From UHGV virus genome UHGV-0134942: a stretch of 34,876 nt of DNA; one strand, given 5' to 3'. The notes under the pieces were generated by a model. The model was not told where the DNA came from. It saw only the letters and a program-made list of their open reading frames with translations, and did no database searches. The position numbers and the translations under genes are program-made. The first letter of the stretch is position 1, and the number at the start of each line of letters is the position of its first letter. This stretch comes from a virus. Shown in pieces: positions 1 to 18,363 of the stretch.

Positions 1-193
1 CTCGTTGTGGAGAATAACAAAAATGGTCATCTGGAGCTTACAGGTGGCCATTCGTGGGACAGTATCCCTGACAGCCTACAAAACGCAATTGAAGAACGCG
101 AGGCATCGTCTTAACGAGGCACCGAGGAGTCGCATTCTTCAGATGGTTCAACCCTTAAGTTAGCGCTTATGGGATCTCTCCCCGCCAGGTCTC

Positions 194-349
194 TTACCTT
201 TCAGATTCGTAGGCTGTGAAGACAGTGACCTCCGTCTGGCCGGTTCGGATTCGTACCTCGCAGAGGTCTTTCCTCGTTACCAGTGCCGTCACAATGACGG
301 TTAAACAGATGACGATCAGAGCGATTAATATCGCTTTTTGCTGCTTCAT
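194..349 (-). CDS. hok: Hok/Gef-family type I toxin (51 aa), not in the supplied ORF track because it is under 60 aa
   Basis: Manual minus-strand translation gives MKQQKAILIALIVICLTVIVTALVTRKDLCEVRIRTGQTEVTVFTAYESER, which matches the Hok/Gef family (single TM helix, conserved RKDLCEV and TEVxVFTAYES motifs). AAGGAG Shine-Dalgarno lies 9 nt upstream of the ATG at 349. Confidence 0.8.
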   Translation of the reverse strand: MKQQKAILIALIVICLTVIVTALVTRKDLCEVRIRTGQTEVTVFTAYESER

Positions 350-407
350 AGCCTGCTTCTCCTTGACCTTTTGGTCGGTAAGAGGCTAATCTACGTATGC
401 TAAGCAT
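201..407 (-). CDS. Mok-like overlapping reading frame (modulator of killing) covering hok in another frame
   Basis: 68-aa ORF from the track overlaps the hok CDS out of frame and ends 7 nt downstream of the hok stop, as in hok/mok/sok loci. GAGG lies about 8 nt upstream of its ATG. The protein sequence itself is not diagnostic. Confidence 0.35.
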   Translation of the reverse strand: MLSIRRLASYRPKGQGEAGYEAAKSDINRSDRHLFNRHCDGTGNEERPLRGTNPNRPDGGHCLHSLRI

Positions 408-530
408 AGATATTGCCTCAGATTAATGTTAAGCGTCTTGCAGGACGCGTAATGTTATCTGGGGCTTTCTTCTATCTGCTTTTCGGGTAATGCCTGAAGC
501 AGATAGCCTCAAGCACCCGCAACGATTGTA

Positions 531-776
531 TCAATGTCTGGCTTTTTTTCTATAGAAATCACCTGGAAGGGTGAATATCCACATCAGAAGAAATGTTGCA
601 GCAAACATGATCCCTAATGGCCAGACCGCGCCAAAGAAAATCCATACTAAGATCTCCTCTGCTTGTTCTTTGCGGTCGATATCGACAAGCATTTTTCGGC
701 TGATCATGTATACACAGAAGCCAATACAAACATATCCTGCAAAAGCGATCGCTAACTGTAAAAAATCAGATTGCAT
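531..776 (-). CDS. Small two-helix membrane protein (81 aa), function unknown
   Basis: Track ORF 531..857; the internal ATG at 776 has a GAGG Shine-Dalgarno 7-10 nt upstream and avoids overlap with the upstream gene's 3' end. Two hydrophobic stretches (LAIAFAGYVCIGFCVYMI and ILVWIFFGAVWPLGIMFAATFLLMWIF). Confidence 0.4.
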   Translation of the reverse strand: MQSDFLQLAIAFAGYVCIGFCVYMISRKMLVDIDRKEQAEEILVWIFFGAVWPLGIMFAATFLLMWIFTLPGDFYRKKARH

Positions 777-826
777 CTCCGACCTCAAACTGAAAACGCC
801 AGGTGACTCCAGATTAGAGCAATCTA

Positions 827-1672
827 TCACCCTCTGAATCCTGCCGGTATACCCCATTGTTCGTTATCTTTATTTTTGGCTAAAACCGCATTAAGAGCTT
901 CGTTTACCGTCATGCAATGCGGCAGATTATCGAAGTTTGATATCCCGCCAATATCAGGAGAACGCTTGTCCTTCAGGTAAGCATGTTTCCGCGCTGCCGC
1001 CTCTACTTTCTGCTTGAACTCATGTTTTTGAGCGCGTTTTTTGGATAACCGCAGATTGTCAGCCTTTGCTTTTGCCTCAGCGATCCATGAAGTCAATTTT
1101 TTGAGTCTGGTCGTTCCGGCACCGCCGGAAACTGATCTTTTTGTTTTTTTAACTTGTGACTTCTTATTCTTTATTGCCACGTCATCCTGACAGGGGGAGG
1201 GGGTATCATTTTGACATGGGGGTGTGGATAAAAAATTAAATAAAGCCAATGTCTTAGCGAGAACAGCTTTAACCTTGGTTGCCGCTGAAGAGATCTTTAA
1301 TTTGCTTTCAATCAGCGCATTTTTGGCTTGTTGTGCGAAGGCCAAAAAGGATGGTGTAAACCGGTACAGGTTAGCGCGACGTTCACGGTGATCGCCGATA
1401 ACAATCTCTACAGACAGAATTCCTTTGTTTACAGCTTCACGGAATGCACGAACGACGGTTGATTGGCTATAACCAGTTTCTGCCGCGATCAGGCGGTGAG
1501 GCTTGTGAATGAAGTATTCACTGGTTGTTGCCGCGAGATTTGCACATTGCGACAGGATATGCCCGGCGCTACGGGATAGACCGGAGTGTGTTACAAAGCA
1601 GGCCAATTCATAGCCAGAAAAAGTAAAATCGCTCATCGTTATACAGCTCAGGAAAGTGACTTTAGCCAGCAT
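827..1672 (-). CDS. repL: RepL-like lytic replication initiator with helix-turn-helix (281 aa)
   Basis: Track ORF; HTH-like segment IAAETGYSQSTVVRAFREAVNKGILS. Sits directly downstream of the KilA-N gene, as in the P1 kilA-repL lytic replicon. Name is by synteny and size from memory, not a search. Confidence 0.6.
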   Translation of the reverse strand: MLAKVTFLSCITMSDFTFSGYELACFVTHSGLSRSAGHILSQCANLAATTSEYFIHKPHRLIAAETGYSQSTVVRAFREAVNKGILSVEIVIGDHRERRANLYRFTPSFLAFAQQAKNALIESKLKISSAATKVKAVLAKTLALFNFLSTPPCQNDTPSPCQDDVAIKNKKSQVKKTKRSVSGGAGTTRLKKLTSWIAEAKAKADNLRLSKKRAQKHEFKQKVEAAARKHAYLKDKRSPDIGGISNFDNLPHCMTVNEALNAVLAKNKDNEQWGIPAGFRG

Positions 1673-1701
1673 TACAATGCTGGTGGTTCTTACTACGTCT
1701 G

Positions 1702-2502
1702 TTAGCGCGTCGCCGCGACAGGCACCAGCACACCAGCATCAAGCAATCGCTTCATAAGCCACTGCTGACCTTTGCCGGTTATACGAGTCGTGAAAGAAAT
1801 CCTGCTTCCATTGCTTGTATCGATCACGGTTTCTTTAAGGGTGAAATACCTACGGGATATGTATTCTTGTTTGGGGACGTTCCTGCGTTCACCGGTTGCG
1901 ATCAGAATTCCGTTATCACGCAACCAGGTGAAGAGATAGTTTTGGCCCAGGCCGAGCACTTTGGCATAGTTGCCGATTAGAACCCCGCTGGCGGTAGCAA
2001 CGCGTTCGGCGAATTCGACTTTAGGTGCATCCATAAGCATTTTTTGCTCCAGCCGTTGCTTTTGCTCTGCCAGGTCGGCAGCCAAACGGAGAGCTTCAGG
2101 GAGACTCTGCGGAATAGCAGGTTGTAATCTTCCAGCTCGATAGTCGATAAATGTCTGGTTTACCTTCAGCCGAAACGCGGGAGAAATCCAGCCTGCGTAC
2201 TCCACAGCGAGCAATTCATGGGCAAAAGTGCCGCCGCCACGGCCTTCGAACGAAACTATGCAATTCTGCATAGTTTCTTTTTCAAGCTCTTCGATGAGCT
2301 GTTTAGCTGACAGCGTTCTTAGCCATTGAGCTGGCGCTTTATGGGCACCGAGTCCGCTCGCTCTGTGTAGAGCATTAAGGTTGTAACGGCCAGCGCGGTC
2401 GGTCGTAATTTCAACACCACAAATAACGGGCAGAGTGGTTGAAGGATCGACATTTTGATGAAGGTTTGATATATTCATATCCGCATTGAATGTTTGTTGC
2501 AT
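1702..2502 (-). CDS. kilA: KilA-like protein: N-terminal KilA-N-type domain plus C-terminal antirepressor (KilA-C/Ant) domain (266 aa)
   Basis: Track ORF; GGAG Shine-Dalgarno 7 nt before the ATG at 2502. C-terminal half is clearly paralogous to the C-terminus of the next gene (shared PEALRLAA-LAEQK, APKV-FA-RV, LIGN-AKV-GL, W-NGIL, YF..KE, TGKGQQWL motifs). Confidence 0.7.
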   Translation of the reverse strand: MQQTFNADMNISNLHQNVDPSTTLPVICGVEITTDRAGRYNLNALHRASGLGAHKAPAQWLRTLSAKQLIEELEKETMQNCIVSFEGRGGGTFAHELLAVEYAGWISPAFRLKVNQTFIDYRAGRLQPAIPQSLPEALRLAADLAEQKQRLEQKMLMDAPKVEFAERVATASGVLIGNYAKVLGLGQNYLFTWLRDNGILIATGERRNVPKQEYISRRYFTLKETVIDTSNGSRISFTTRITGKGQQWLMKRLLDAGVLVPVAATR

Positions 2503-2571
2503 TTTTTCTCCAAATTTGCATCAACCTTCAATCACCAGCTCGAAATGGTGATTCTTTGCACTTAGAAAACG

Positions 2572-2588
2572 AAATTTATTAGAGCAAA
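2572..2588 (-). promoter_or_regulatory. C1-repressor operator-like 17-mer in the ant/kilA intergenic region (P53-like position)
   Basis: Minus strand reads TTTGCTCTAATAAATTT, 16/17 identical to the P1 C1 operator consensus ATTGCTCTAATAAATTT as recalled from memory; located about 70 nt upstream of the kilA start. Confidence 0.5.
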
Positions 2589-2665
2589 TTTTTCTGACTC
2601 GATCCAGATCGGGTTGGACGATCTGCTCAGAAACCTGCCAGTTTGCTGGCAGGTTTTTTCTTTTG

Positions 2666-3331
2666 TTAACCTATTGCTACTGGTTTTAACAAACCAGCAT
2701 CAAGTAGCTTGCGAGTTAACCACTGCTGGCCTTTACCCGTTAATTGGGGCGTCAGCCGTATCTGGTAGCCATTTTCATCATCCAGCACCACTTCTTTCAC
2801 CGTGAAATACCCGGCGTTGATGTACTGTTGGCGCGGTACGTTTTTGCGCGCACCAAAAGCCATGAGAATGCCGTTCTGGCGCAACCATGAGAAAAGGGCG
2901 TTTTGCTTAAGTCCAACGACCTTTGCAAAGTTCCCGATCAGGATTCCATTAGCCGCTGATACCCGGTCGGCAAAATCGACTTTAGGGGCTGCGGCCACCA
3001 GCTGTTGTTCCAACTGCATTTTCTGTTCTGCTAACTCGGCAGCCAGGCGTAGAGCTTCTGGTAATGTTTGGGGGATCGATGGGGCAGGGGAGTTTGCCTG
3101 CTGTAATTCTTCCAGTTTGTCGATCAGCGAACGGCGGACCGCTTTTGACTCGCGCGCGGCAACTCGCAGGGCTTGTTTGTAGGTCATGGTTATAATATCT
3201 ATTTCTGCGCCGTTTTTTTGACCTACGAAAATTTCGTAGGTTTCTCCTTCAAGCTCATCCTTAACTCTGGCAATGAAATCATTGTTGCGAACTGGTTTTT
3301 CGCTACATAATTTCCGTGCCTCATTGACCAT
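2666..3331 (-). CDS. ant: Antirepressor (Ant-like, KilA-C-type C-terminal domain); frame runs open upstream to the IS1 boundary, so likely a 5'-truncated ant1 / Ant2-like remnant
   Basis: Track ORF 2666..3340; first ATG at 3331 (MVNEARKL...). Manual translation shows the same frame has no stop from 3332 to 3433, the base adjacent to IS1. C-terminal domain is paralogous to the kilA product. Confidence 0.6.
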   Translation of the reverse strand: MVNEARKLCSEKPVRNNDFIARVKDELEGETYEIFVGQKNGAEIDIITMTYKQALRVAARESKAVRRSLIDKLEELQQANSPAPSIPQTLPEALRLAAELAEQKMQLEQQLVAAAPKVDFADRVSAANGILIGNFAKVVGLKQNALFSWLRQNGILMAFGARKNVPRQQYINAGYFTVKEVVLDDENGYQIRLTPQLTGKGQQWLTRKLLDAGLLKPVAIG

Positions 3332-3488
3332 CTTCAACAATGTTTGGCTGTCGATTGTGTCTCCGGTGTTGGGGATGACATTCAGGGCTGGTGCTGGCGT
3401 AGCTGAAGCAACAGGTGCTGGTTTTTCAACATTGGTGATGCTGCCAACTTACTGATTTAGTGTATGATGGTGTTTTTGAGGTGCTCCA

Positions 3489-3764
3489 GTGGCTTCTGTT
3501 TCTATCAGCTGTCCCTCCTGTTCAGCTACTGACGGGGTGGTGCGTAACGGCAAAAGCACTGCCGGACATCAGCGCTATCTCTGCTCTCACTGCCGTAAAA
3601 CATGGCAACTGCAGTTCACTTACACCGCTTCTCAACCCGGTACGCACCAGAAAATCATTGATATGGCCATGAATGGCGTTGGATGCCGGGCAACCGCCCG
3701 CATTATGGGCGTTGGCCTCAACACGATTTTCCGCCATTTAAAAAACTCAGGCCGCAGTCGGTAA
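3489..3764 (+). CDS. insA: IS1 InsA (91 aa)
   Basis: Protein [43 protein letters not shown]... is the canonical IS1 InsA. Confidence 0.95.
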
Positions 3765-4186
3765 CCTCGCGCATACAGCCGGGCAGTGACGTCATCGTCT
3801 GCGCGGAAATGGACGAACAGTGGGGCTACGTCGGTGCTAAATCACGTCAGCGCTGGCTGTTTTACGCGTATGACAGGATACGGAGGACAGTTGTGGCGCA
3901 CGTTTTCGGTGAACGCACTCTGGCCACACTGGAGCGTCTTCTGAGCCTGCTGTCGGCCTTTGAGGTCGTGGTATGGATGACGGATGGCTGGCCGCTGTAT
4001 GAATCACGCCTGAAGGGAAAGCTGCACGTTATCAGCAAGCGTTACACTCAGCGCATTGAGCGACATAATCTGAATCTGAGACAACATCTGGCAAGGCTGG
4101 GACGGAAGTCGCTGTCGTTCTCAAAATCGGTGGAGCTGCATGACAAGGTCATCGGGCATTATCTGAACATAAAACACTATCAGTAA
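3683..4186 (+). CDS. insB: IS1 InsB reading frame (B'); the InsAB' transposase is made by a -1 frameshift from insA
   Basis: 167-aa ORF with the canonical IS1 InsB sequence (…[54 protein letters not shown]…). Confidence 0.9.
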
Positions 4187-4203
4187 GTTGGAGTCACTAC
4201 CTT

Positions 4204-5394
4204 GGATCTGAAGGTAAGGCAAATCTCGATAAGTTGGCTCCGTATTTTGCTGAACTAGAGAATAAATATGGTCTTCCAGAAGGCACTCTTTACGCGATTG
4301 CTGCAACTGAATCTGGTGGTAATCCGTATGCAAAATCCCAAACCGGTGCTCTGGGAATGTTTCAGTTCACGGGGATTGCTCGTGAAGAGACTGGCTTAGC
4401 TGAAGGTGAATCGTTTGATCCTGTGAAATCGGCAGAAGCTGCGGCTCTTCTCATGAGCAAGTATCTGAAGCAAGCCAATGGAGACTTAAACGAGGCCATC
4501 ACTGCATATAACGCTGGGTTTGGCACTATCAATAAGTGGAAAAAAGGCACAGGTGACTTATCGAAAGAAAACCGTGAGTACGCGATCAAGGTCAATACTC
4601 ATCGTGCTCGCTATTTAGGTGGTGAAATCTATACACCTGGAGCAGGAGCACAGGGTGGGGCGCAATATGGAGTGAGGGGACCACTGCCTGATAACGCTGT
4701 TATCGATCAGTCTACTGGCCTGGCGTTTACCCCTAGTGATAGCCCGTTTGAGAAAGGCGGTCTGGTAGACAAAATCGGCAATGCTGTTGGCGTTAACGAT
4801 CTGGTCAACAAATTCATGAATGGCCGGGGTATGCGTCGGGAAGTCGTTCAGGGAACGCTCGAAGAACGTGCACGAGGGAAGGGGACCGCAACAGCAGCTG
4901 GCAATGTGTATGTTGATACTCCGATGCCAGTTGAAGAGGCGCGTCCGGTGACCAGCAACTCAAGTTACTTTGACCAACTCGGCGCACAAATGGGGATTGA
5001 TGGACTATTCGATAAACTCCGCAACTCGCCGGGGATGCGGAAAAATAATGCGCCTGAACCAGCCTCCACGTCCCAGGTGACGACTGCCGCCAACGATTTG
5101 CAGCAACCAACCGGTCGTATGCAGATAGACGGACAGGTTATTAGTGACCTTGGTGGTTCCGGTGCCAAGCCGACAATGCAGTTGGCTGATAATACCGTTT
5201 CACTTGATGGTGAAACGAAGCGGCTGTTTGCGCAGATGACCTCATTACTTGCCAGGATTGAAGAGCACACCAAAGACTCGGCGAAAGGCCAGGGAACTGT
5301 CGTAAAGGTCAGCACGCCTCAGCCGGGCGTTATGCGCACGGTACCACTGTCAATTGATGATCCGTTGATGAATGACTACGCGAGAGTTGATTGA
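4204..5394 (+). pseudogene. sit: 5'-truncated sit-like structural injection transglycosylase (C-terminal about 396 codons, lytic transglycosylase domain)
   Basis: Reading frame is open from the first in-frame codon after IS1 (4204); the track only finds a TTG start at 4234. SLT-domain motifs ATESGGNPYAKSQTGALGMFQF and AYNAG are present. Followed by pmgA/bplA-like genes as in P1. Confidence 0.65.
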
Positions 5395-5750
5395 TGGCCA
5401 ACAATAACGAAATTGATCCTTTGCTGACGCTGGAGTTATCCGGCGTAAAAACGTATGAGTCCCAGGAGGAGGCCTGGGGCGCTCGTTTATATGAGTGGCT
5501 AAACACTTATCAGGGTGAGGTATACGGAGATCCGTCATGGGGCAATGTTTTACCGCAGTTTAAACACGAACCGACCAACTTGTCGCATGTTCAAATTGCG
5601 GTTGAGGCAATGCTGTTGCAAAAACTGACGGTAGATTTATCTGACATACCGATTTCTGGCTTGTCAGTAGCCGAGGGAGATGCTTTTGATAAGTTGAAAA
5701 TATCCATTCGTATCAGGGATATAACTATCACACAGGACGTGGTGCTATGA
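5394..5750 (+). CDS. pmgA: Putative tail/baseplate morphogenesis protein (118 aa)
   Basis: Track ORF; ATG at 5394 overlaps the upstream stop (translational coupling). Name by synteny only. Confidence 0.45.
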   Translation: MANNNEIDPLLTLELSGVKTYESQEEAWGARLYEWLNTYQGEVYGDPSWGNVLPQFKHEPTNLSHVQIAVEAMLLQKLTVDLSDIPISGLSVAEGDAFDKLKISIRIRDITITQDVVL

Positions 5751-7180
5751 GTAAAACAACACCGACTAAAGACAGTATTCGTGCAGAGTTTGAAGAGCTT
5801 GTCGAGAAAGATTCATTCTGGTCGAAGTTTGTCGGCTCTCAATTTGTCTCGATGCTGACATTGTTTATTACCCAGATTGTCTACAGGTGCTTTCAGTATG
5901 CCGATGCGGCGCTGGCTGAAGGCTTTATATCGACCGCGACGCGGCGTTCCTCTATCTTGGCAGCGGCAGAAACGAATAGTTACGTTGGTACCAAGCCAAC
6001 ACCGTCATCGGGGATGATTGAGATCACCGCCACAAGTGAAGATGCCCCAGCGGTAATCCCCAAAAACATGCCTTTAATATCTGACGACCAGTACCCTTAC
6101 ATGACTATGGATGTATGCAGGTTGGTTGACGGCACCGGTACGGTAGAAGTGGCACAGTTGGAAATCCAGGAGGTGACATATACCGTTACGGCAGCCAAAG
6201 AATTTCTGGAAGTCGTGTTATCAAAGGCTCTCACTGCTGTCTGCTATAAGCTGGAAGTATTCGTGACGACCGATGGTAAGACCACGCAGTGGTCTTCCAG
6301 CACTATGTTCCGGTTAGCCGGTAGTAAAAGCCAGGTCTACGTTGAGTTTTATAAACCATCCGAGCAGTTGGGGGTTCGATTCGGTGATGGGCTAATTGGG
6401 CAAATACCGCCAGAAGGCTCGACCATTACACTTAAGGTATGGTGCACCAACGGAGATATAACCTTGGTTGCTGGCCAAAATCTGACGCCTGTCGATTCTG
6501 CGGCTAATTTAGCTAATTTGATTTCAGTTAAGACAACGACACCCATAACCGCAGGTACCGATGCCGAAACAACGGAGATCACACGTAATCGTGCACAATA
6601 TTACCTTGCCTATGATGATCAGGTCGTATGGGGCGGGGACTATACGTATTTTCTGGTGCGTAACATCCCGGGACTGTCCTGGGTAAAGGCATGGGGCGAA
6701 GGCCAGCAAGAGAAATTAGATGGTGCTTATAATATCCGGAATATCAATAAGATATTTATTTCAGGATGGCATCCAAACAAAAGCCAGTCAGAGCTTGAAG
6801 AAATGATCCTGGCTGCCTTTAAGAAGGTGCCGAATGAGTTGAACAAGAAATTCTCGTATAAAGAGGTCAGAAAACTACCCTTTAAGATCACCATCACCGG
6901 GCGGATATCGGCAAGCCTGACCATTGAGAACGTGACTGATGAGCTGAAGTCGGCACTGGAAACAAAATTTGGGCGTGACTCAACTTTCTTTGATCCGAAC
7001 CGTGTCGGCAAGTACATCCTAATCAAGAAAAAAGACGTTTGGGCATTTATCGAAACGCTGGGTTATTTCCGCGACTTTTATCTGGAATTTGTCGAGTGGA
7101 ATGAGTCCAACGGCTTTTACGATTTCGTTTATCTGGATACAGAAAACTCCACCTTTAATATTTCGTATGAGGAGGAGTGA
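5747..7180 (+). CDS. bplA: Baseplate protein (477 aa)
   Basis: Track ORF coupled to neighbours by ATGA overlaps at both ends; position between sit and the tail fibre genes. Name by synteny. Confidence 0.5.
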   Translation: MSKTTPTKDSIRAEFEELVEKDSFWSKFVGSQFVSMLTLFITQIVYRCFQYADAALAEGFISTATRRSSILAAAETNSYVGTKPTPSSGMIEITATSEDAPAVIPKNMPLISDDQYPYMTMDVCRLVDGTGTVEVAQLEIQEVTYTVTAAKEFLEVVLSKALTAVCYKLEVFVTTDGKTTQWSSSTMFRLAGSKSQVYVEFYKPSEQLGVRFGDGLIGQIPPEGSTITLKVWCTNGDITLVAGQNLTPVDSAANLANLISVKTTTPITAGTDAETTEITRNRAQYYLAYDDQVVWGGDYTYFLVRNIPGLSWVKAWGEGQQEKLDGAYNIRNINKIFISGWHPNKSQSELEEMILAAFKKVPNELNKKFSYKEVRKLPFKITITGRISASLTIENVTDELKSALETKFGRDSTFFDPNRVGKYILIKKKDVWAFIETLGYFRDFYLEFVEWNESNGFYDFVYLDTENSTFNISYEEE

Positions 7181-8016
7181 TGCAGCGTTCCTGGTTTAAT
7201 AACCGGCTTACATCAGCTAAGCAAAAGTCATTGCTCTATAAATCATTGGCTGATTTGGTTCAGTCAATGATGGATACCTTTGTTGACCCATGGTTGGAGC
7301 GAATTACCAACCGGAAGTCTATTTTTTCCATGAGCAAGGAGGATCTGGAGACCAGGACAAATGAACTTGGCCAGTTCTTTACTATCAGAACGTCGAACTC
7401 ATCTTCCGTTCCGATGTTGTTACAACAGCGTCTTGATGAGATTCACTTTAAGGGGACTGAACGCCCTATAAACCAGACAATTTACCGCGAATTTAACGGT
7501 ATTTCTGTTTTATGGGATCCGATATATGCACCGGTGGACCTTGAGCGTCATCCCTATGGCACGGTTCTAATACCAGAAAGCACACTGGAGACTACCGGCG
7601 GCACATTCGGCGAGATGTTTCTGACTTCCAGAGGGATGATCAGTATTCCCATAAACGACCTGGCCCGGACAATGGGGATTACTGGCACGATAGATCAGTC
7701 CGCAATTACAGAAGAAATTCTCAGAAAGTTTAATCAGTTCGTAAAGCCTCTACTGCCACTGCATATAGTGTTTGATGGGCTTACGCTCTATTTGTCGGTT
7801 GTTGTAAATGAACAGGCCGACATGATCACTTTGAACGAGATTTCTGATACCGAAAAAGCATTCTGCTGGTTTGAAACTTCGGATACAACTTCGCTTACTG
7901 GAGTTACGTCGATTAGCGCCCCGATCACCGCAACGCCTGGTGGCACTATTGTGAAAGCGACACCTACGTTTGATCGCACACGCGCAGATGATTTGTTGCT
8001 GGATAGCGACGCCTGA
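7180..8016 (+). CDS. Baseplate/tail structural protein (P1 gp16-like, 278 aa)
   Basis: Track ORF 7177..8016; ATG at 7180 overlaps the bplA stop. Confidence 0.5.
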   Translation: MQRSWFNNRLTSAKQKSLLYKSLADLVQSMMDTFVDPWLERITNRKSIFSMSKEDLETRTNELGQFFTIRTSNSSSVPMLLQQRLDEIHFKGTERPINQTIYREFNGISVLWDPIYAPVDLERHPYGTVLIPESTLETTGGTFGEMFLTSRGMISIPINDLARTMGITGTIDQSAITEEILRKFNQFVKPLLPLHIVFDGLTLYLSVVVNEQADMITLNEISDTEKAFCWFETSDTTSLTGVTSISAPITATPGGTIVKATPTFDRTRADDLLLDSDA

Positions 8017-8019
8017 CAA

Positions 8020-8044
8020 TCACCCCGTCCGCAGGGCGGGGTGA
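8020..8044 (+). terminator. GC-rich stem-loop after gp16 (possible attenuator or weak terminator)
   Basis: CACCCCG(8021-8027) pairs with CGGGGTG(8037-8043); weak U-tract downstream. Confidence 0.3.
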
Positions 8045-8094
8045 CAAGTTACTTCTCTTACAATGAGGCTTCACAACATTGATTAGGGAAAATC

Positions 8095-8529
8095 ATGTCT
8101 GACGTCTCAACAAACCTCTATAAGAGTCAGTTGTTGGACTATTACTATCAGCGGCGCGCTGAATCGTCCATTAACAAAGGCTCTCGATTTTTAATCAGCA
8201 AGGCCGTTTTCGGTACCAGTTCACTGGTTACTAAGAAAGGAGATGGCACTTATGAGATTGGAGAACTGCCAAAGGCTTTCGATCTGGCAGAACTGACCAG
8301 TCAATTTTGCACCATCAACCTCGTCCCAACCTACTCAGGCGGGATAATAACTGTCCGAATGGACCTTGATCAAAGCCAGTTGCAGGAAGGGAAAAACTAC
8401 CCATTCAACACTCTGGTTGTTCTGGATAACGAGAACAAGCCAATCGCCATTATTTGTGTCCAGGAAGACTCGCTGTATGTGGGCAAAACATATACCGCAG
8501 TTATGGCCATAAACACGACTACAGCATAA
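8095..8529 (+). CDS. R: Tail fibre-associated structural protein (P1 R-like, 144 aa)
   Basis: Track ORF immediately upstream of the tail fibre gene; stop at 8527-8529. Confidence 0.45.
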
Positions 8530-8540
8530 GGATATGCTTG

Positions 8541-11500
8541 ATGAATGACGTTACAGTTGTCACATCGGTTACTTACCCATCACCCGAGTCGTTGGCTCTG
8601 GTGGCTGATGTGCAATACCACGAACCATATCTGTCAGCCGCGCTAAACCGAAAATTCAGGGGGATTGTTGACCCGGGATTTTATGCCGGTTTCTTACCTA
8701 AGCCTGGCGGTGGGATGAACCTGTTAATCACCTCAGTGGATGGTGATAAAACCGCAGGCGCGGCGTCGGTGGATATTGGTGAATTCTACCAGGTAACTAT
8801 TCAGCAACGTAAGGATATTTCTCTTGCACTTAGTGCAGGCAAGAAATATGCAATTGTGCTGAAGGGAAGATACCTCCTTGGAGAAGATACCTATCAGGTG
8901 AATACCGCGTCACATATTCATGCGGCTGAATTTGTTTCCAGAACCTATACCGATTCATATCAGTTAGGAGATGGGGAGCTGCTTGTTTGTACGGTGAATA
9001 TCCCTGCTGGTGTATCTGCCATTACCCAGGAGATGATTGATACATCCAAGCGTATCAACCGCACGATCGGCATTGATATTTCAGACTCTGTAACCAGTAC
9101 CAGAAGTGATGTTGCTGCGAGTTCGCTGGCAGTTAAAAAAGCCTACGATCTGGCTAAAAGCAAGTATACGGCGCAGGATGCAAGCACAACACAAAAGGGA
9201 TTAGTTCAGCTCAGTAGCGCAACTAACAGCGACAGCGAAACAATGGCGGCTACCCCTAAAGCCGTTAAGTCTGTAAAAGAGCTGGCTGATACCAAAGCGC
9301 CAATAGAAAGCCCGAGTCTGACAGGAACGCCAACCGCGCCGACGGCAGCGCAAGGTACAAACAGCACGCAGATCGCAAATACAGCCTTTGTTAAGGCAGC
9401 TATAACGGCACTTATCAACGGTGCACCTGGCACACTGGATACGCTTAAAGAAATAGCTGCTGCGATCAATAACGACCCGAATTTCAGCACAACTATCAAC
9501 AATGCTCTGGCTCTTAAAGCTCCTTTAGCAAGTCCTGCATTAACGGGAATACCTACTGCGCCTACCGCTGCACAGGGTACGAATAACACGCAGATTGCTA
9601 CGACCGCTTATGTAAGAGCTGCTATCTCTGCATTGGTCGGCTCATCACCTGAAGCTCTTGATACTCTGAATGAGCTTGCAGCAGCACTGGGCAATGACCC
9701 GAACTTTGCGACAACAATGACAAATGCGCTGGCAGGCAAACAGCCTCTGGATGCAACTTTAACCGCGCTCGCTGCCCTTGCGACTGGTGCAAACAAACTG
9801 CCTTATTTCACTGGTAAGGATACGGTAGCGCAGACTGATTTAACGTCAGTCGGTCGCGATATTCTGGCTAAAACAAGCACACTGGCCGTTATCCAATACC
9901 TTGGTTTAAGAGAACTCGGTACCAGCGGTGAAAAGATCCCCCTGTTGAGCACGGCTAACACATGGAGTGCGCGCCAGACTTTCAACGGCGGGATCACCGG
10001 GGCGCTGACAGGGAACGCCGACACCGCGACGAAATTGAAAACAGCACGCACGATTGGCGGTGTGGCATTTGATGGCTCGGCCAATATCAATCTTCCAGGT
10101 GTAAATACAACAGGTAACCAGAACACCACGGGGAATGCTGCTACCGCGACAAAACTTGCGACGGCAAGAAACATCAACGGTGTTAAGTTTGATGGCTCAG
10201 GCGATATCAACATTAATACATTGGTATCTCGTGGCCGAGTTACGGCGTTAAGCGGCTCTACTCAAGGCACTGCTGGCATTCAAATGTACGAGGCGTACAA
10301 CAATAGCTACCCGACCACGTATGGCAACGTATTGCACATGAAAGGTGCGAGTGCTGCTGGTGAGGGCGAGTTGCTTATTGGCTGGAGTGGTACGAGCGGT
10401 GCACATGCGCCAGTTTTCATTCGCTCCCGAAGAGATAACACAGATGCGGCATGGTCTGAGTGGGCACAGGTCTATACATCGAAAGACTCCATACCGGGCG
10501 TAAATACAACGGGCAACCAGAACACAACAGGAAATGCGGCGTCTGCCACGAAATTACAAACGGCAAGAACCATTGGTGGCGTTTCATTTAATGGTACCGC
10601 AAACATCGACCTGCCAGGTGTGAATAAAACAGGTAATCAGAGCACTACTGGCAATGCTGCAACTGCAACAAAACTGCAAACAGCACGCACAATAGGCGGC
10701 GTATCATTCGATGGCTCCGCCAATATCAATCTGCCGGGTGTAAACATTGCTGGTAACCAGAACACAACCGGTAATGCAGCTACGGCTACCAAATTGCTAA
10801 CAGCGCGTACCATTAATGGGGTTTCATTTGACGGTTCTGCGAATATTTCACTGTCACCAGCAAATATTGGTTGCCCGGCATCTCCTACTGGTTGGCTTGT
10901 AACAGGTGATAATGGAGCTTCAATAACAACAGAGCAATTAGTGACTCTGCTACGAGATAATGGTGCTTTTAATGCAAAGGCATGGATAGCGCGTTGTGCC
11001 TGGGCGTATGCAAATAGTGCATCCATACCAGACAGCGAAACAGGATGCGGCATTATTCCACTGGCTGGCGCAGTTATTGAGGTATTTAATAACGGCAGTA
11101 GCTCAAACAATTATACGATTCGTATAACAACGGCAACAACGACAGGTGTCTCTGGCGCACTCACTAATGCGGAGTTTGTCTATGTGTTTAACGGGACGAG
11201 CTATTCACCAGGATGGCGCAGAGCGTATAACACTAAAAACAAGCCTACTGCGGCTGATGTCGGAGCTTTACCACTATCTGGAGGAGCGTTAACTGGCGGA
11301 TTAACTGCTGCTGGCGAGATTATTTCCAAATCGGCGAATGGTCTGCGCATTGCCTACGGAAACTACGGATTCTTTATCCGAAACGATGGTTCAAACACAT
11401 ATTTCATGTTGACCGATTCGGATAACAGCCTAGGAACCTATAATAGGTTAAGGCCGCTTATCATTAACAATGCCAATGGTGCTGTTACGATCGGTAATGG

Positions 11501-12560
11501 ACTCAATGTTACTGGCGGCATCAATGGTAGTTTGAACGGTAATGCTGCAACTGCTACAAAACTTCAGACTGCAAGAAAAATATCCGGTGTTCCATTTGAT
11601 GGTTCTACTGATATCACTTTAACCGCCGCGCATGTGGCTGCTTTTGCCAGAAGGGCAACGGATACATATGCCGATGCGGATGGTGGCGTTCCCTGGAATG
11701 CCGAATCAGGCGCTTACAATGTCACCCGCTCTGGCGACAGCTATATTCTGGTTAACTTCTATACCGGAGTCGGAAGTTGCCGGACATTGCAGATGAAGGC
11801 GCATTACAGAAATGGTGGTCTGTTCTACCGTTCTTCAAGAGACGGTTATGGTTTTGAAGAAGACTGGGCAGAAGTTTATACCTCGAAAAATCTTCCACCA
11901 GAAAGCTACCCAGTCGGCGCACCAATCCCGTGGCCATCAGATACCGTTCCGTCTGGTTATGCCCTGATGCAGGGGCAGACTTTTGACAAATCTGCTTACC
12001 CGAAACTTGCAGCCGCTTATCCGTCAGGCGTGATCCCTGATATGCGTGGCTGGACGATTAAGGGCAAACCTGCCAGTGGTCGTGCCGTATTGTCTCAGGA
12101 ACAGGACGGCATTAAATCGCACACCCACAGCGCCAGCGCATCCAGTACGGATTTGGGGACGAAAACCACATCGTCGTTTGATTACGGTACTAAACCAACG
12201 AATAACACAGGTGCACATACCCACAATGTATCTGGTACTGCAAATAGTGCTGGCGCACATACTCATACCGTTCCATTAAGGAGACCAAACAGTGGAGGTA
12301 TGAATTTCGACTGGCTTGATGGTTCATCAAGTGGCACGGTCGTGGGGAATGGAACAGTGCCTTCTTCTGGTGCACACACCCACTCAGTATCAGGCACTGC
12401 TGCAAGTGCAGGGGCGCATGCACATACAGTTGGTATTGGCGCTCATACGCACTCTGTTGCGATTGGTTCACATGGACATACCATCACCGTTAATGCTGCT
12501 GGTAACGCGGAAAACACCGTTAAAAACATCGCATTTAATTATATTGTGAGGCTTGCATAA
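8541..12560 (+). CDS. S: Tail fibre protein (1339 aa) with internal tandem repeats and a His-rich C-terminal tip
   Basis: Track ORF 8454..12560; the likely start is the ATG at 8541 ([15 protein letters not shown] Shine-Dalgarno upstream, just after the R stop). Two ~74-aa repeats ([26 protein letters not shown]…), at least five copies of a ~40-aa unit ([40 protein letters not shown]), and C-terminal GAHTH/HxH repeats. Confidence 0.85.
9300..9760 (+). repeat. Two ~222-bp in-frame tandem repeats inside the tail fibre gene (phage-fibre repeat)
   Basis: Protein repeats [63 protein letters not shown] and [63 protein letters not shown]. Confidence 0.7.
10006..10860 (+). repeat. Array of ~120-bp in-frame tandem repeats inside the tail fibre gene
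   Basis: Recurrent unit [10 protein letters not shown](Q/A/L)TART/NIxGVxFDGSANIxLPGVNxxGNQ(N/S)TT; a further copy lies near 11527-11625. Confidence 0.7.
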
Positions 12561-13177
12561 TGGCATTCAGAATGAGTGAACAATCACGTACAGTAAAAAT
12601 TTATAACCTGCTGGCCGGAACTAATGAGTTTATTGGTGAAGATGACGCATATATTCCACCTCATACAGGGCTGCCAGCTAATTCTACAGATATCGCCCCA
12701 CCGGAAATTCCTACTGGCTTTGTGGCAGTTTTCAACAGTGAAAATGAATCGTGGAATATTGTTGAAGACCATCGTGGTAAAACGGTCTATGAGGTGGCAT
12801 CGGGGGACGCGTTGTTTATTTCTGAACCCGGACCGCTACCAGAGAATGTCACCTGGTTGTCGCCAGCAGGGGAGTATCAGAAGTGGGACGGCGTATCCTG
12901 GGTGAAGGATGAGGAAGCAGAAAAACTGTTTCGGATACGGGAAGCGGAAGAGAAAAAGGCAAGGTTGATCCAGGAGGCAACAGATAACATCGCAATTCTG
13001 CAGGACGCAGTTAATCTTGAAATAGCAACAAACGAGGAAAATTCACAACTGGACTCCTGGAGAAAATACAGAGTATTAGTGAGTCGAATTGATACCAGTA
13101 CAGCTCCGGATATCGTATGGCCAGAGCTGATGAATCAGGGTTATGTGCGGGAGGACGAGCAGATAACTTCAGACTGA
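12560..13177 (+). CDS. U: Tail fibre assembly chaperone (Tfa/U-like, 205 aa)
   Basis: ATG overlaps the S stop (TAATG); size and position typical of tail fibre assembly proteins; conserved W-KYR-like C-terminal segment ([14 protein letters not shown]). Confidence 0.75.
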
Positions 13178-13704
13178 AATTTAGTGATGAATGTTGAATC
13201 ATCAGGAATATCATGCAATACCAATGCATGAGCACCTATTGTGACATTGTTTCCTATACGCACTTTGCCACCAAGAATGGTGGCATTACAACCAATGGTC
13301 ACATTATCTCCTATAACAATATCCATGTCATTAAATTCCCCGCGAAGTCCAATAGTTACTCCGGGCTTAATTGAACAATTTTCACCGATTGTGACTTTGT
13401 GAGCGATAACAACGCCATTGAGATAAGATATGTCAAACCCTTTCCCTATATTTACCGTTAAGGGAACGGTTACATTGTATTTGTCAAGAATGAAGCGTTC
13501 TATTTTCCCTGCAACCTTTCGCCTGTATCCGCCTTTATCAAAAAGATATTTTGATATGCGCCACCAAAATAAATAACGAACTCTTCTATGTTTTATTGCG
13601 CGAACAATTGCTTTTCGCCAAGAGAAAGGACGCTCGCTACCAATTACTTCATAGTGAATACAGTCTTTAAGTTCATTAATAGTCATATTTCTATTGTTCA
13701 GCAT
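13141..13704 (-). CDS. Hexapeptide-repeat (left-handed beta-helix) acetyltransferase, AT-rich; possible moron (187 aa)
   Basis: Imperfect hexapeptide repeats ([16 protein letters not shown]…[34 protein letters not shown]). Markedly lower GC than the flanking phage genes. Converges on U and overlaps its 3' end by 37 bp. Confidence 0.7.
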
Positions 13705-13769
13705 AATATAATAATGTGACCAATTATTATAATAACTTTAATGGATTATTTCTACTGATTATCCAGTGT

Positions 13770-14700
13770 GTCTGGCGGTTTTCGGTATTATCTGCCGGAA
13801 CCATGCCTCATCCAGCGGGTATTTGCTGCCTGGGTTGTCCGGTTTTTCGGTCACTCCCTCAGGCCTCCGATTCTGGTCACGGCGGGTTTGTTATTTTCCA
13901 GTGCGTCGGATGACCACTGCCGCAACTTCTGCACCATTTTTTGGGAGCGGGATTTCACTCCTACGCAACCTGCGCTTTTTGTGCAGCCTGTTTTGCGTGC
14001 TATCCCGGATTTTTGAGTTTCATTCTGCCTCCATGATCCTATCAGGGACGACACCAATCCACTTAAGCACGATGCCAAGACCATCAAGGAGCTGCGTCAG
14101 AGGCCCAGCACAATGTTCTGCTTGATCGGCATAGGGGGGAGCACAAGGGCTGCGCCCCTGCCACACCACCCGGCATGCGGGTCCGTACCGGGCTTCCTCG
14201 GCTTCTGACGCAATGTCCTGTCAAGAGTCATATCTTCTGGCTTTCCTTCTCGTTCGGCCCTTCGTCGGAGTCCTGACTACTACGGCCTCTGCTGACTTCT
14301 CGCTCCGTCTTACGACGTTGCCCTTTCAGGCATGAGGCGAGAACTCCCCAGGTAAGAACGCGATCCTTCCCCGCACAACCGTCGGATCTGCGCGACTTCG
14401 ACTTGACCACGAAAGCTTCGCAGTGATGTGCCTGCTCGCCTTGCTCCATCGCGCCTCATATCCGATTCTCGTTCATCGGCTCACGGGTTCATTCCGTGCT
14501 TCCTCCCCACGCCCGGTCGCCCTCACGCAGTTGCACTTCATTTCGCTCGCTGTGGTCAGCTCGCGGGAGGGCTTTCACCTCCAAGATCGCGCCCATGCTG
14601 GGCGCACACATCCTCCACGCTCTAAAGGACGTGGAGGATGTCAAGCAACATGACCGGTTGAGAAGTTACTTTGCATACCATTACCTCCTGACAACGTAGG
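13770..14700. other. ~0.9 kb GC-rich, strand-skewed block (pyrimidine-rich on +) without a convincing ORF; candidate structured RNA, long leader or decayed gene
   Basis: All six frames give only short overlapping Pro/Ser/Arg-rich ORFs of 60-120 aa. Contains perfect hairpins at 14589-14605, 14609-14640 and 14684-14703. Lies where P1 carries cin and the invertible C-segment. Confidence 0.4.
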
Positions 14701-14703
14701 AGG
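14684..14703 (+). promoter_or_regulatory. Hairpin pairing the lydA Shine-Dalgarno (AGGAGG) with an upstream CCUCCU
   Basis: CCTCCT(14684-14689), 8-nt loop, AGGAGG(14698-14703); GTG start of the holin-like gene at 14710. Confidence 0.4.
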
Positions 14704-14709
14704 GAACTT

Positions 14710-15039
14710 GTGCTTGACACACAGGAATTAGCTCCAGTTGCTATTGCGCTCCTGCTTTCAGTAATTGGTGGGATAGGCACGTTCCTGATGGATGTCCGAG
14801 ATGGTCGCCAGTCTGGCAATTTGTTGGGATTGGTTACGGAGATCTTTGTTGCAGTGACAGCTGGCGCGGTGGCGTACCTATTGGGGCAACACGAGGGCTG
14901 GGAGTTATCAATTACGTACTTAATGGTAACGATAGCCAGCAATAACGGTCATGAGGTGATTTCAGGGATGAAACGAGTGAATATCGATAGCATTCTGAAT
15001 GTTCTTACAAGTTTGGTGAAAAAGGGAGGTGGGAAATGA
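14710..15039 (+). CDS. lydA: Holin-like membrane protein (109 aa)
   Basis: GTG start with AGGAGG Shine-Dalgarno; hydrophobic helices (LAPVAIALLLSVIGGIGTFLM and EIFVAVTAGAVAYLLG); first gene of the hdf-darA operon, as P1 lydA. Name by synteny. Confidence 0.55.
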   Translation: MLDTQELAPVAIALLLSVIGGIGTFLMDVRDGRQSGNLLGLVTEIFVAVTAGAVAYLLGQHEGWELSITYLMVTIASNNGHEVISGMKRVNIDSILNVLTSLVKKGGGK

Positions 15040-15479
15040 TTGGCTGGGGTGTATGCGTTCTTGCGTTAGCCTTAGCCGATCGCTATTTGCTAAAACGCAA
15101 GGACATCACGCATTTAGAACTTGGTGATGTGGAAGTTAAACAGGGCTTCATCCGGGTGCCGTTCAAATACCGGTCTAAATTCCCGTTTTTGCGCGGCGCA
15201 ACGGTCAGATATTGGATCCGCGATGTTCAGAAGCCAACGACAGTGATTGAAGGCGAACAACGTTGTCTGACGTCGGCTGAACAGGGCGAAAACAGTGAAT
15301 GGTTGTACATACCCACTGAATATATGGGTAAAGGAGAACGGCTGTGGCATTTCAACGTCATGGTTACGCATGGTGACTCGTTCATTAACCCGTTGTATCG
15401 GATTTTCCCTGTTACTCAGCAAATCCGCAGAAGTTACGTAATAAATCTCGCACAGGATGTGTCAGATGACGAAAAATAA
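15036..15479 (+). CDS. lydB: LydB-like lysis regulator (antiholin-like, 147 aa)
   Basis: ATGA overlap with lydA; N-terminal hydrophobic segment. Name by synteny. Confidence 0.5.
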   Translation: MIGWGVCVLALALADRYLLKRKDITHLELGDVEVKQGFIRVPFKYRSKFPFLRGATVRYWIRDVQKPTTVIEGEQRCLTSAEQGENSEWLYIPTEYMGKGERLWHFNVMVTHGDSFINPLYRIFPVTQQIRRSYVINLAQDVSDDEK

Positions 15480-16068
15480 GTATGCAACGGTCGATTTTGA
15501 CCAGGTTAATGAAAAGGGGCTGAAATCCCTTATCGCGGCGATCAATAAAACCGGGGTTACGGTAATTGAGGTTGACTCCAGCAACCGCGCAACAACGAAA
15601 GATGGCGTTAAAGTTAAAACCGCAAAGCTGGTTCTTAACGACGGACAAATTCTTGCCATACAGGTAAACGATACTGGCGATATATCGTCTGTGAAACTGA
15701 ATGGAAAAGCTATTCCTAACGCTCAGTCGCCGGATATCAAGACGCTTGGTACCGTCATGGGACAGGCGGCCCGCAAAAACTCCGCAAAATTCCAGAAATC
15801 ACTGATCGCCAAAGCGAAGCGTGTTGCCAATCCGGTAGACAAGAAACCGGCAGTTAAATCCAACTTTCAGCGCCTGCAAGAAGCAAAACAGCGGAATGCT
15901 CAGGTGGTTGCCGCTTATAAGTCCGCGCAGAATTCGGTGTCTTTCAATCAACAGCAGATCACTGATTTGCGGGCGAAGCTGGATAAGGAGACAGGCCGAC
16001 TCAATAACGAAAAGGCCCGAAATGGCGAACTCAAACGCCGTCTTAAGCAACTGAAAGCAGGAAATTAA
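15457..16068 (+). CDS. hdf: Hdf-like protein (homologue of a DarA fragment, 203 aa)
   Basis: Shares a segment with the downstream 639-aa protein (…KNSAKFQ…, and GQILAIQVNDTGD versus GQTISILFHSPTAE). Position upstream of darA as in P1. Confidence 0.55.
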   Translation: MCQMTKNKYATVDFDQVNEKGLKSLIAAINKTGVTVIEVDSSNRATTKDGVKVKTAKLVLNDGQILAIQVNDTGDISSVKLNGKAIPNAQSPDIKTLGTVMGQAARKNSAKFQKSLIAKAKRVANPVDKKPAVKSNFQRLQEAKQRNAQVVAAYKSAQNSVSFNQQQITDLRAKLDKETGRLNNEKARNGELKRRLKQLKAGN

Positions 16069-16069
16069 C

Positions 16070-17989: not shown

Positions 17990-18351
17990 CACTATCAGCT
18001 ATTGAGTTAATGGATCTCAGCGATAAGTTGGATGCTCTGATGTCCAAAGCGGCTACCGCGAGTGGTATGGAGTTGCTGGATATCAGCGATGAAATTGACC
18101 AGATCATGCAACAGATGGGGTACGGCGCGTCCGGCGGTGGTAGTGGCGAGGAAAAACAACCTTCGGAACATGATGGTGTGCCAAAACTGGTTGCTGATTT
18201 CCTGGCTGATAAATTCGTCGATCAGAGCACCGATGCATTTATCGGTACCTTGCAGGATTTGAGTCAATATGTTGGCACATACATCGACCTGGACCAGGTT
18301 AAACAGCACACGGCGGCATGGATAGCCGCCAACATTAAAGAGGCAGCATAA
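17986..18351 (+). CDS. ddrA: DdrA-like protein (121 aa, acidic)
   Basis: ATGA overlap with the darA stop; small acidic protein. Name by synteny. Confidence 0.45.
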   Translation: MTLSAIELMDLSDKLDALMSKAATASGMELLDISDEIDQIMQQMGYGASGGGSGEEKQPSEHDGVPKLVADFLADKFVDQSTDAFIGTLQDLSQYVGTYIDLDQVKQHTAAWIAANIKEAA

Positions 18352-18363
18352 GGCGTAACAGGG

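Follow-up and report, generated by a model that had tools for sequence, protein, structure and literature searches.

An intact kilA gene beside an IS1-truncated ant in a P1/P7-like phage-plasmid

The P1 lytic replicon region and its relatives

The immI and lytic-replicon region of phage P1 (NC_005856) is arranged as c4-icd-ant1/ant2 and kilA-repL. According to the annotation of the P1 record (NC_005856), the Ant1/Ant2 complex is the only one with known binding and inactivation of the C1 repressor, and icd is apparently required for ant expression. The C-terminal domain shared by KilA and Ant is already known, having stood in textbooks and in Pfam for years; it was first named KilAC after the C-terminus of P1 KilA (PMC5944126). 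Shuffling of this domain (PF03374) among phage regulators, in which one conserved C-terminal KilAC is joined to alternative N-terminal modules of DNA-binding type, is credited to Iyer, Koonin and Aravind (2002) where they are cited in PMC5944126, and phi11 Gp07, composed of Bro-N and KilAC, is another such case (PMC5944126).

Disruption of ant by mobile elements has been recorded in related plasmids. In pMCR_SCKP-LL83, the ant1 gene of a P7-like plasmid was hit by an ISApl1-mcr-1 structure, so that here likewise the antirepressor gene is inactivated by a mobile element, and the carrier gave no plaques upon induction (PMC5786510). The ant::IS1 IncY phage-plasmids, among them p6CP1-IncY-mcr-3.5 (NZ_CP064027.1) and NZ_KX518745.1, carry an IS1 in ant; the ant::IS1 junction is common to nine PLSDB plasmids, and these keep the 9-bp target duplication as well as icd on the far side.

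Here, we describe the corresponding locus in a viral genome of 34,876 nucleotides, the whole of which is termed the window. The locus is recognizable as the ant-kilA-repL region of a P1/P7-like IncY phage-plasmid, comprising the ImmI-distal end and the head of the lytic replicon, and positions 813-3433 are 96.5% identical at the nucleotide level to the ant-kilA-repL segment of P1 (NC_005856). The P1 annotation could be mapped across for repL, kilA, ant1/ant2, Op53, PkilA and PaskilA, with the same gene order and orientation and with Op53, P53 and P53as conserved. An earlier note on this DNA had named the genes kilA-like and ant-like, and these names are correct: the first product differs from P1 KilA by two substitutions (264 of 266 residues identical), while the second is 90% identical to P1 Ant1/Ant2 over the 255 residues retained and 99% identical to the Ant of its own plasmid lineage. 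In contrast to P1, an IS1 interrupts ant 18 nt past the ant2 ATG, neither the c4 region nor icd nor the 5′ part of ant1 is present, and a hok/sok module and a small ORF stand in place of rlfA and rlfB, found 3′ of repL in P1.

The kilA gene (1702-2502, minus strand) is an intact ORF of 266 aa with Pfam matches to KilA-N and ANT, and is identified as the P1 kilA orthologue by its near-identity, its place directly upstream of repL, and the presence of Op53 and P53 upstream. The second gene of the kilA-repL operon (827..1672, minus strand) is a 281-aa ORF encoding the lytic replication initiator, as its alignment to the annotated repL of P1 shows; a Pfam Phage_P1_RepL match is recorded on an identical contig. 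The ant-kilA intergenic region contains only two differences from P1. The mapped PkilA (P53) promoter occupies 2572..2606 on the minus strand and overlaps the C1 operator Op53 (TTTGCTCTAATAAATTT at 2572-2588), and a putative antisense promoter within the 5′ end of kilA (2447..2475, plus strand; TCGACA-17-TATATT with an extended TG, 10 of 12 matches) agrees in position with the PaskilA (P53as) promoter annotated in P1. A terminator scan found a palindromic hairpin with a 13-bp stem followed by a T-run on the plus strand (2629..2658) and no T-run on the ant strand; given its position downstream of PaskilA, this hairpin could terminate the antisense transcript. The kilA-repL operon still lies behind its own C1-repressed promoter, P53/Op53, together with P53as, and so its regulation is expected to follow that of P1, kept silent in a lysogen and switched on by the loss of C1.

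The KilAC domain of KilA and Ant and its N-terminal partners

The earlier note had described a homologous C-terminal domain of about 130 residues in the two products, and pairwise alignment confirms that the similarity is significant. KilA and the translated ant remnant are 52% identical over 200 aa (BLASTP, E=5e-66), and in the C-terminal block (KilA residues 128-266 against remnant residues 118-255) 88 of 139 residues are identical (63%), a length that departs only trivially from the earlier estimate. At the DNA level the block is roughly 60% identical, counted as identical alignment columns. The PF03374 profile (ANT, 'KilAC domain'; gathering score 25.3 bits) matches KilA with 109.2 bits over residues 152-254 and the remnant with 108.2 bits over residues 142-244; the homology blocks lie at 1705..2121 in kilA (E=1.7e-31) and 2669..3082 in ant (E=3.5e-31), both on the minus strand. 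Judged from these alignments, kilA and ant are old paralogues in the C-terminal KilAC domain only.

The N-termini, which had been held to be unrelated, indeed behave as such. Their global alignment gives 19% identity, and their local score of 25 is at the level of shuffled sequences (mean 25.3; 243 of 500 shuffles reach 25). KilA matches the KilA-N domain (PF04383; gathering score 23.8 bits) above the gathering score over residues 27-123 (2134..2424, minus strand), whereas the ant remnant does not; at E<=1 no match was found in P1 Ant1 or the remnant, nor was the domain matched by any of 30 diverse Ant-domain sequences. From its predicted structure and from family searches, the middle domain of Ant (remnant residues ~24-114; 3092..3364, minus strand) is a separate module that is weakly Rha-like. 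Its model has a pLDDT of 83-89 and the element order beta-alpha-alpha-beta-beta-alpha-alpha. The family of the Ant N-domain comprises 654 representatives at 50% clustering. Phage_pRha (PF09669; gathering score 29.9 bits) weakly matches 12 of the 30 trimmed Ant-domain members (best E 0.005, all below cut-off), and the full-length family member P0398 scores 28.6 bits within its Ant-type domain, again below the 29.9 cut-off; the Ant sequence of the window gave no PF09669 match. Among solved structures, no relative was detected by sequence for Ant, KilA or the Ant N-domain profile.

The combinations in which these domains occur point in the same direction as the claim of domain shuffling, which holds: KilAC is present in both proteins, KilA-N in KilA only, and the Ant N-domain forms a separate family. 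KilAC was found in 16 of 45 sampled proteins with an Ant N-domain; one longer member carries ORF6N, the Ant domain and KilAC, another joins the Ant domain to an N-terminal partial pRha match and KilAC, and KilA-N occurs with other partner domains too. Many proteins carry the Ant N-domain and lack KilAC, so this domain acts as a module in its own right. We read the two proteins as KilAC with two kinds of N-terminal partner, KilA-N for KilA and a Rha-like domain for Ant, a form of shuffling already described for phage antirepressors. There is no difference in principle from the known cases; the two architectures merely adjoin, as they do in every P1/P7 genome.

If ant2 and kilA were instead paralogues over their whole length, both N-domains would descend from one APSES/KilA-N-like domain, with the Ant copy diverged past recognition. 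The near-equal lengths of the proteins (Ant2 261 aa, KilA 266 aa) would agree with this, as would the matching succession of secondary-structure elements in the modelled N-domains and a weak but collinear hhalign alignment (ELEGE/ELEKE, RSLIDKL/QTFIDYR). However, the comparison of the Ant N-domain with KilA-N by hhalign reaches only P=0.16 and a probability below 1%, with three different alignments, and 13 KilA-type rows covering the N-region in the alignment behind the Ant model could have biased that model. Added to the shuffle-level score, the contrast between no KilA-N matches and 12 weak Phage_pRha matches among 30 Ant-domain sequences, and the occurrence of the Ant N-domain apart from KilAC, this makes whole-gene paralogy unlikely, and domain shuffling is preferred. 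The PHROG 63 profile matches both KilA and Ant over their whole length; it is suspected of mixing several architectures, possibly including proteins like KilA and Ant, and was set aside as evidence of N-domain homology.

The ant remnant at the IS1 boundary

Adjoining the remnant is a 768-bp IS1 on the plus strand (3434..4201), with an exact match to the 23-bp IRL beginning at 3434, a variant IRR ending at 4201, and Pfam matches to InsA and DDE_Tnp_IS1; insA (3489-3764) and insB (3683-4186) lie within it. The element is 100% identical to the IS1 of p6CP1-IncY-mcr-3.5, and its position and orientation are identical to those in the ant::IS1 IncY phage-plasmids. It sits 18 nt downstream of the position of the ant2 start codon and abuts the remnant at 3434. 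The lineage's Ant2 begins MTGNNL|NVEK..., where the bar marks the cut after codon 6, and what is left (2666..3433, minus strand) is Ant2 minus its first six codons, namely 255 codons and a stop, lacking a start codon. Between the IS1 boundary (3433) and the stop (2666) the frame is uninterrupted, while both native starts, that of the ant1 frame at the end of icd and the internal ant2 start, are absent from the window.

In the direction of IS1, the frame meets an in-frame stop inside IRL, after which the first in-frame starts are TTG 3340, TTG 3337 and ATG 3331. The last of these (3329..3331, minus strand; upstream sequence acagccaaacattgttgaag) had been proposed earlier as an internal start and does exist in frame, where it forms codon 35 of the remnant, equivalent to Met41 of the lineage's Ant2, and would give a product of 221 aa. 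No Shine-Dalgarno sequence was found before any of the three codons. A simple consensus scan, which covers canonical promoters, found no promoter-like site on the minus strand between 3340 and 3560. A hybrid promoter at the IS1/ant junction was considered and rejected: the ant flank offers no usable -10 at a spacing of 16-18 nt from a TTGGCA close to the end of IS1. In a sister plasmid, PGAP labels the remnant 'incomplete, missing N-terminus', and it annotates both ant halves as pseudogenes in NZ_CP062905.1 (RefSeq). Lacking a start codon, a ribosome-binding site and a facing promoter, the remnant is therefore regarded as a pseudogene, and silence is its more likely state.

Two proposals would grant the remnant a function. 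In the broader, antisense transcription from the left end of IS1 would let the truncated ant act as a 221-aa fragment, consisting of a partial Rha-like domain and KilAC, that modulates C1 or host growth, and separately Ant2 and KilA would be full-length paralogues with a cryptic APSES-like N-domain; this is rather improbable, and an active fragment or a cryptic shared N-domain, if true, would add a little to P1 biology without amounting to a new kind of system. An active fragment would agree with a reading frame that has been kept open in all copies of the lineage, which has spread in pigs and humans.

The narrower proposal is that a truncated Ant is expressed from ATG 3331 by read-through or antisense transcription out of the left end of IS1, and keeps some activity such as C1 binding or growth inhibition. 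The ORF is intact from this ATG to the native stop, and gene callers call the 221-aa ORF on an identical contig. A weak promoter-like site (9 of 12 matches) on the minus strand inside IS1, at 4094-4065, could drive antisense transcripts through IRL into the remnant, and the KilAC domain of phi11 Gp07, when over-expressed alone, inhibits growth of Escherichia coli (PMC5944126). No copy seen has stops or frameshifts in the remnant, but this carries little weight because the copies are nearly identical. Against expression stand the lack of a Shine-Dalgarno sequence upstream of the ATG or the TTGs, an IS1/ant junction devoid of promoter-like sites, the loss of the native translation signals of both Ant1 (after icd) and Ant2, and the PGAP call of a pseudogene; moreover, the tail genes past IS1 are on the opposite strand, so that nothing reads into the remnant from there. 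We consider an expressed and active fragment highly doubtful, and retain the silent pseudogene.

The IS1-adjacent deletion and the state of the element

The 9-bp target duplication is absent around the IS1 of the window, which has TTCAACATT as its left flank and TTGGATCTG as its right flank. In p6CP1-IncY-mcr-3.5, TTCAACATT stands at either end of the same IS1, and the ant2 ATG, the 5′ part of ant1 and icd come next. Unequal flanks in the window, with the duplication kept in p6CP1, are the signature of an IS-adjacent deletion. Positions 1-4203 are 100% identical and positions 4201-20687 99.5% identical to p6CP1, and between these blocks 7,047 bp of the plasmid are absent from the window. The deletion removed the 5′ end of ant, icd, the c4 region, simB, simC, pmgC, tub, pmgB and the 5′ 2.5 kb (two-thirds) of sit. 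Its far end point lies in sit, the tail transglycosylase or tape measure gene, of which the 3′ 1.2 kb remain (4202..5394, plus strand), recognized by an SLT domain and by alignment to the P1 and p6CP1 sit genes in their 3′ part. The ant::IS1 plasmids differ from the window in retaining the target duplication, the 5′ piece of ant, icd, the sim genes, pmgC, tub, pmgB and a full-length sit, whereas pMCR_SCKP-LL83 differs in its element, its insertion site and the lack of an accompanying tail-gene deletion (PMC5786510).

The history is accepted, on comparison of these sequences, as one of two steps: IS1 inserted after codon 6 of ant2, duplicating TTCAACATT and creating an allele that circulates in at least nine sequenced plasmids, and in this lineage the same IS1 then deleted the neighbouring 7,047 bp, reaching from its IRR into sit. 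This amends the earlier view that the IS1 event itself had removed the c4/icd control region. The removal stands, as Rfam finds no C4 RNA in the window and icd and its upstream region (the site of c4 in P1) fall within the missing 7,047 bp, but it was not a single event, and the ant2 start codon has gone as well. The sequence fits either of two routes to the deletion, intramolecular transposition of IS1 or recombination of one IS1 copy with another. As a recombination partner, only one second IS1 in sit was found, the IS1B of pEcQE11-421-2, ~390 bp from the break point of the window, and it was rejected.

That the ant′-IS1-′sit junction is an artefact, with two IS1 copies merged during short-read assembly of a metagenome and the 7-kb segment really present, is most improbable. 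The contig from which the window derives (NODE_174) is indeed a metagenome contig of short-read style, and assemblies classically collapse at IS1. The IS1-sit junction, found only via exact-protein look-up, did not occur in PLSDB, in complete E. coli genomes or in exact-pattern scans of three contig collections (viral, genome and metagenome). But the same junction is present in three independent assemblies, namely ENA ERZ1744277 (identical to the window), a second metagenome sample (ENA ERZ1744269) and a 124-kb contig of the NCBI genome assembly GCA_045574165.1, and no public plasmid has an IS1 at that sit position, the pEcQE11-421-2 copy being the only IS1 seen in sit. Its recurrence in three assemblies shows that the defective form is circulating.

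The anatomy of the locus, the homology of its products and the two-step history are firm. Very probably, the locus holds an intact kilA beside an ant pseudogene produced by IS1 insertion and then adjacent deletion, with the antirepressor circuit lost. The loss of the tail-tube gene makes the element a probable defective prophage, kept as a plasmid; it is likely to be a plasmid-only derivative that can no longer be induced, and its lineage counts mcr-3.5 and mcr-1 plasmids among the sequenced relatives. All the biology at the kilA/ant locus is already known, and the finding is an ordinary one. The C-terminal homology of KilA and Ant defines a Pfam family named after P1 KilA, an architecture so long established that this is not a discovery, and IS-mediated decay of the ImmI region in P1-like plasmids is well documented. 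The practical value, extending little beyond annotation, lies in giving the right labels to an intact kilA, an ant pseudogene, and an element from which the antirepressor circuit and the tail-tube gene are gone.

Two reading frames with a common C-terminal domain

The interval 1702–3433 holds two reading frames, both on the minus strand: kilA (1702–2502; 266 aa) and the ant remnant, which corresponds to Ant2 without its first six codons and is open from 3433 to a stop at 2666 (255 codons). At the nucleotide level, window 813–3433 shares 96.5% identity with phage P1 and 97.8% with P7; the annotated P1 record shows repL, kilA and the 3′ portion of ant1/ant2 in the corresponding stretch. KilA differs from its P1 counterpart at two residues, and the ant remnant product is 90% identical to P1 Ant. 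The P1 record, which describes these genes together with their operator and the Ant1/Ant2/C1 complex, places the start of ant1 (347 aa) at the end of icd and that of ant2 (264 aa) at an internal in-frame ATG.

Pairwise alignment confirms that the kilA and ant products have a homologous C-terminal domain, as the earlier note had claimed (BLASTP E=5e-66); from KilA residue 128 and remnant residue 118 to the C-termini, 88 of 139 positions are identical (63%). Both proteins match Pfam ANT ('KilAC domain', PF03374) at about 108–109 bits. Because DNA identity of the block is roughly 60%, as estimated from identical alignment columns, and no long identical run was seen in the DNA alignment, the block reflects old divergence and not recent conversion. 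The KilAC domain takes its name from the C-terminal part of P1 KilA; a 2002 study, as cited in PMC5944126, described how it pairs with alternative N-terminal modules.

Upstream of this block, no similarity is detectable between KilA and Ant: a global alignment gives 19% identity, and locally the N-terminal parts reach at best the mean score of 500 shuffles. Pfam KilA-N (PF04383) is matched by KilA only, and profile–profile comparison of the Ant N-domain and KilA-N families gave P=0.16 in three set-ups. The claim that the N-termini are unrelated is thus borne out. A profile search with the Ant N-domain (3092–3364) retrieved 654 representatives at 50% clustering. KilAC is present in 16 of 45 sampled proteins; some longer proteins join the N-domain to ORF6N and KilAC, others carry a partial pRha match at the N-terminus and may or may not have KilAC as well, and the C-termini of the remaining sampled proteins match nothing in Pfam. 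Since it is found with such varied partners, the Ant N-domain is an independent module. When 30 diverse members were trimmed to the domain, 12 matched Phage_pRha (PF09669) weakly, always below the Pfam threshold, and none matched KilA-N, which suggests a divergent Rha-type domain. No Pfam model is dedicated to this family, which is marked by the motifs RNNDF, DELEGE and RESKAVRR; most of the listed proteins are 220–260 aa long and begin with the domain or have it close to the N-terminus.

A distant common fold of the KilA and Ant N-domains is possible on the evidence of structure models (pLDDT 84.9 for KilA; 71.5 overall and 83–89 in the N-domain for the ant remnant), in which the order of secondary-structure elements is identical, and of Foldseek, which returned antirepressors and KilA-, Rha- and Bro-type regulators among viral models. 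The signal is, however, marginal, and KilA rows were part of the alignment behind the Ant model. The supported reading is still domain shuffling in antirepressors, as first proposed, with KilAC in both proteins and N-domains of different families.

IS1 insertion and the adjacent deletion

IS1 abuts the ant remnant, with a canonical 23-bp left inverted repeat at 3434–3456 and its right end at 4201, and contains InsA and InsB domains. P1 homology ends 18 nt downstream of the ant2 ATG; Ant2 of this lineage begins MTGNNLNVEK and the remnant starts at NVEK. In the sister plasmid p6CP1-IncY-mcr-3.5 (NZ_CP064027.1), IS1 occupies the identical position with TTCAACATT on both flanks, followed by the ant2 start, the 5′ part of ant1 and icd. 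A 9-bp target duplication is typical of IS1, and the p6CP1 allele is a simple IS1 insertion with such a duplication. This ant::IS1 junction occurs in nine PLSDB plasmids of pig and human origin, from several countries.

The window itself has no target duplication at the IS1 flanks. The right flank, TTGGATCTG, lies inside sit (transglycosylase/tape measure gene), so that past IS1 the sequence resumes mid-gene (SLT domain) on the plus strand. Window 1–4203, including the entire IS1, is 100.000% identical to p6CP1, and 4201–20687 is 99.5% identical; between these matches, 7,047 bp of p6CP1 are absent from the window. By p6CP1 and P1 annotation, the missing DNA comprises the 5′ piece of ant, icd, the stretch that holds c4 and simA in P1, simB, simC, pmgC, tub (encoding the tail tube), pmgB and about 2.5 kb from the 5′ end of sit. 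No C4 RNA was found in the window with Rfam. To judge from these alignments, the ant lesion arose by two events, insertion and then deletion. The earlier note was therefore right that the c4/icd control region is gone, but not that a single IS1 event removed it, and the loss extends beyond that region to the ant2 start codon.

A one-ended deletion beginning exactly at an IS end is a classical result of intramolecular IS1 transposition. Alternatively, the deletion may have come from recombination with another, identical IS1 once present in sit, which would give the same product; the sole IS1 found in sit elsewhere lies ~390 bp away. An assembly artefact is unlikely because the IS1–sit junction, not found in PLSDB, complete E. 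coli genomes or three contig collections, was recovered in three assemblies by exact-protein look-up with the truncated Sit ORF: ENA ERZ1744277 (NODE_174, identical to the window with the same coordinates and evidently the contig it came from), ENA ERZ1744269 and a 124-kb contig of NCBI GCA_045574165.1. The truncated sit (4234–5394) is a 386-aa ORF from a TTG 33 nt past the IS1 right end, called as a gene in all four assemblies. Its SLT transglycosylase domain spans residues 4–113, nearly at the ORF start, and the product, if made, would be an orphan lytic transglycosylase.

Expression signals of ant and kilA–repL

The native translation starts of ant1 and ant2 are both lost. The first in-frame candidates are TTG 3340, TTG 3337 and ATG 3331, none preceded by a Shine–Dalgarno sequence (upstream sequence acagccaaacattgttgaag), and the frame read upstream past 3433 into IS1 meets a stop after eight codons. 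A promoter scan found no minus-strand promoter between the remnant and the IS1 interior, and a single weak 9/12 match on that strand deep inside IS1 (4094–4065); by inspection, the TTGGCA close to the end of IS1 is not followed by an acceptable −10 in the ant flank 16–18 nt away. Read-in from beyond IS1 is not expected, since the genes there run in the opposite direction. According to the P1 record, icd is apparently required for ant expression, and icd is deleted here; RefSeq marks both ant halves as pseudogenes in the sister plasmid NZ_CP062905.1. The proposal that expression would need read-through or ATG 3331 is logically sound, but the missing signals point to no expression, and a silent pseudogene is the most likely state of the remnant.

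The ant–kilA intergenic region, containing the C1 operator Op53 (2572–2588) and promoter P53, has only two changes relative to P1, and the promoter scan recovered the antisense promoter P53as (2447–2475). Because the Op53/P53 region and P53as are conserved, kilA–repL retains expression signals of its own that are under C1 control and do not depend on ant. A perfect 13-bp palindromic hairpin (2629–2658) stands between ant and the promoter of kilA and is kept in P1 except for one A of the neighbouring A-run. As its T-run is on the plus strand only, it looks like a candidate terminator of the P53as antisense transcript, not of ant. In the 124-kb contig (3471–4270), gene calling splits kilA into two overlapping ORFs, one with KilA-N and the other with ANT; this contig is 99.94% identical to the window with 6 gap openings, which may be homopolymer sequencing errors and not a real kilA frameshift.

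Neighbouring elements and known variation

Downstream of repL lies a hok/sok-type type I toxin–antitoxin module (194–518, minus strand), whereas P1 has rlfA and rlfB at this site. It consists of a 51-aa Hok/MokW-like ORF (194–349, minus; phrog_251) and a full-length sok antitoxin RNA (344–518, minus; Rfam RF01794, 114 bits), and is adjoined by a 108-aa ORF (531–857; phrog_3772). Two Rfam matches to group II intron domains D1–D4 span 14257–14526 on the minus strand (RF01998, 14257–14338; RF02001, 14356–14526, 96.9 bits), in the interval that separates the tail-fibre module from the lysis genes. No intron-encoded protein was seen, the two scanned neighbour ORFs having no Pfam match, and the element looks like an intron fragment or small intron remnant. 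A tail-fibre assembly gene (12560–13177; Caudo_TAP) is adjoined on the opposite strand by a 187-aa hexapeptide-repeat acyltransferase ORF (13141–13704); in P1, this area has cin and the invertible C segment.

According to PMC6906374, IS elements are a recognised source of variation in ImmI and the adjacent tail genes of P1-like plasmids, and PMC5786510 reports that ant1 of pMCR_SCKP-LL83 is likewise interrupted, there by mcr-1 insertion. The shared domain with different N-termini is confirmed and its earlier interpretation is supported with refinements; the kilA/ant finding is already known, and agrees with established knowledge in every respect.
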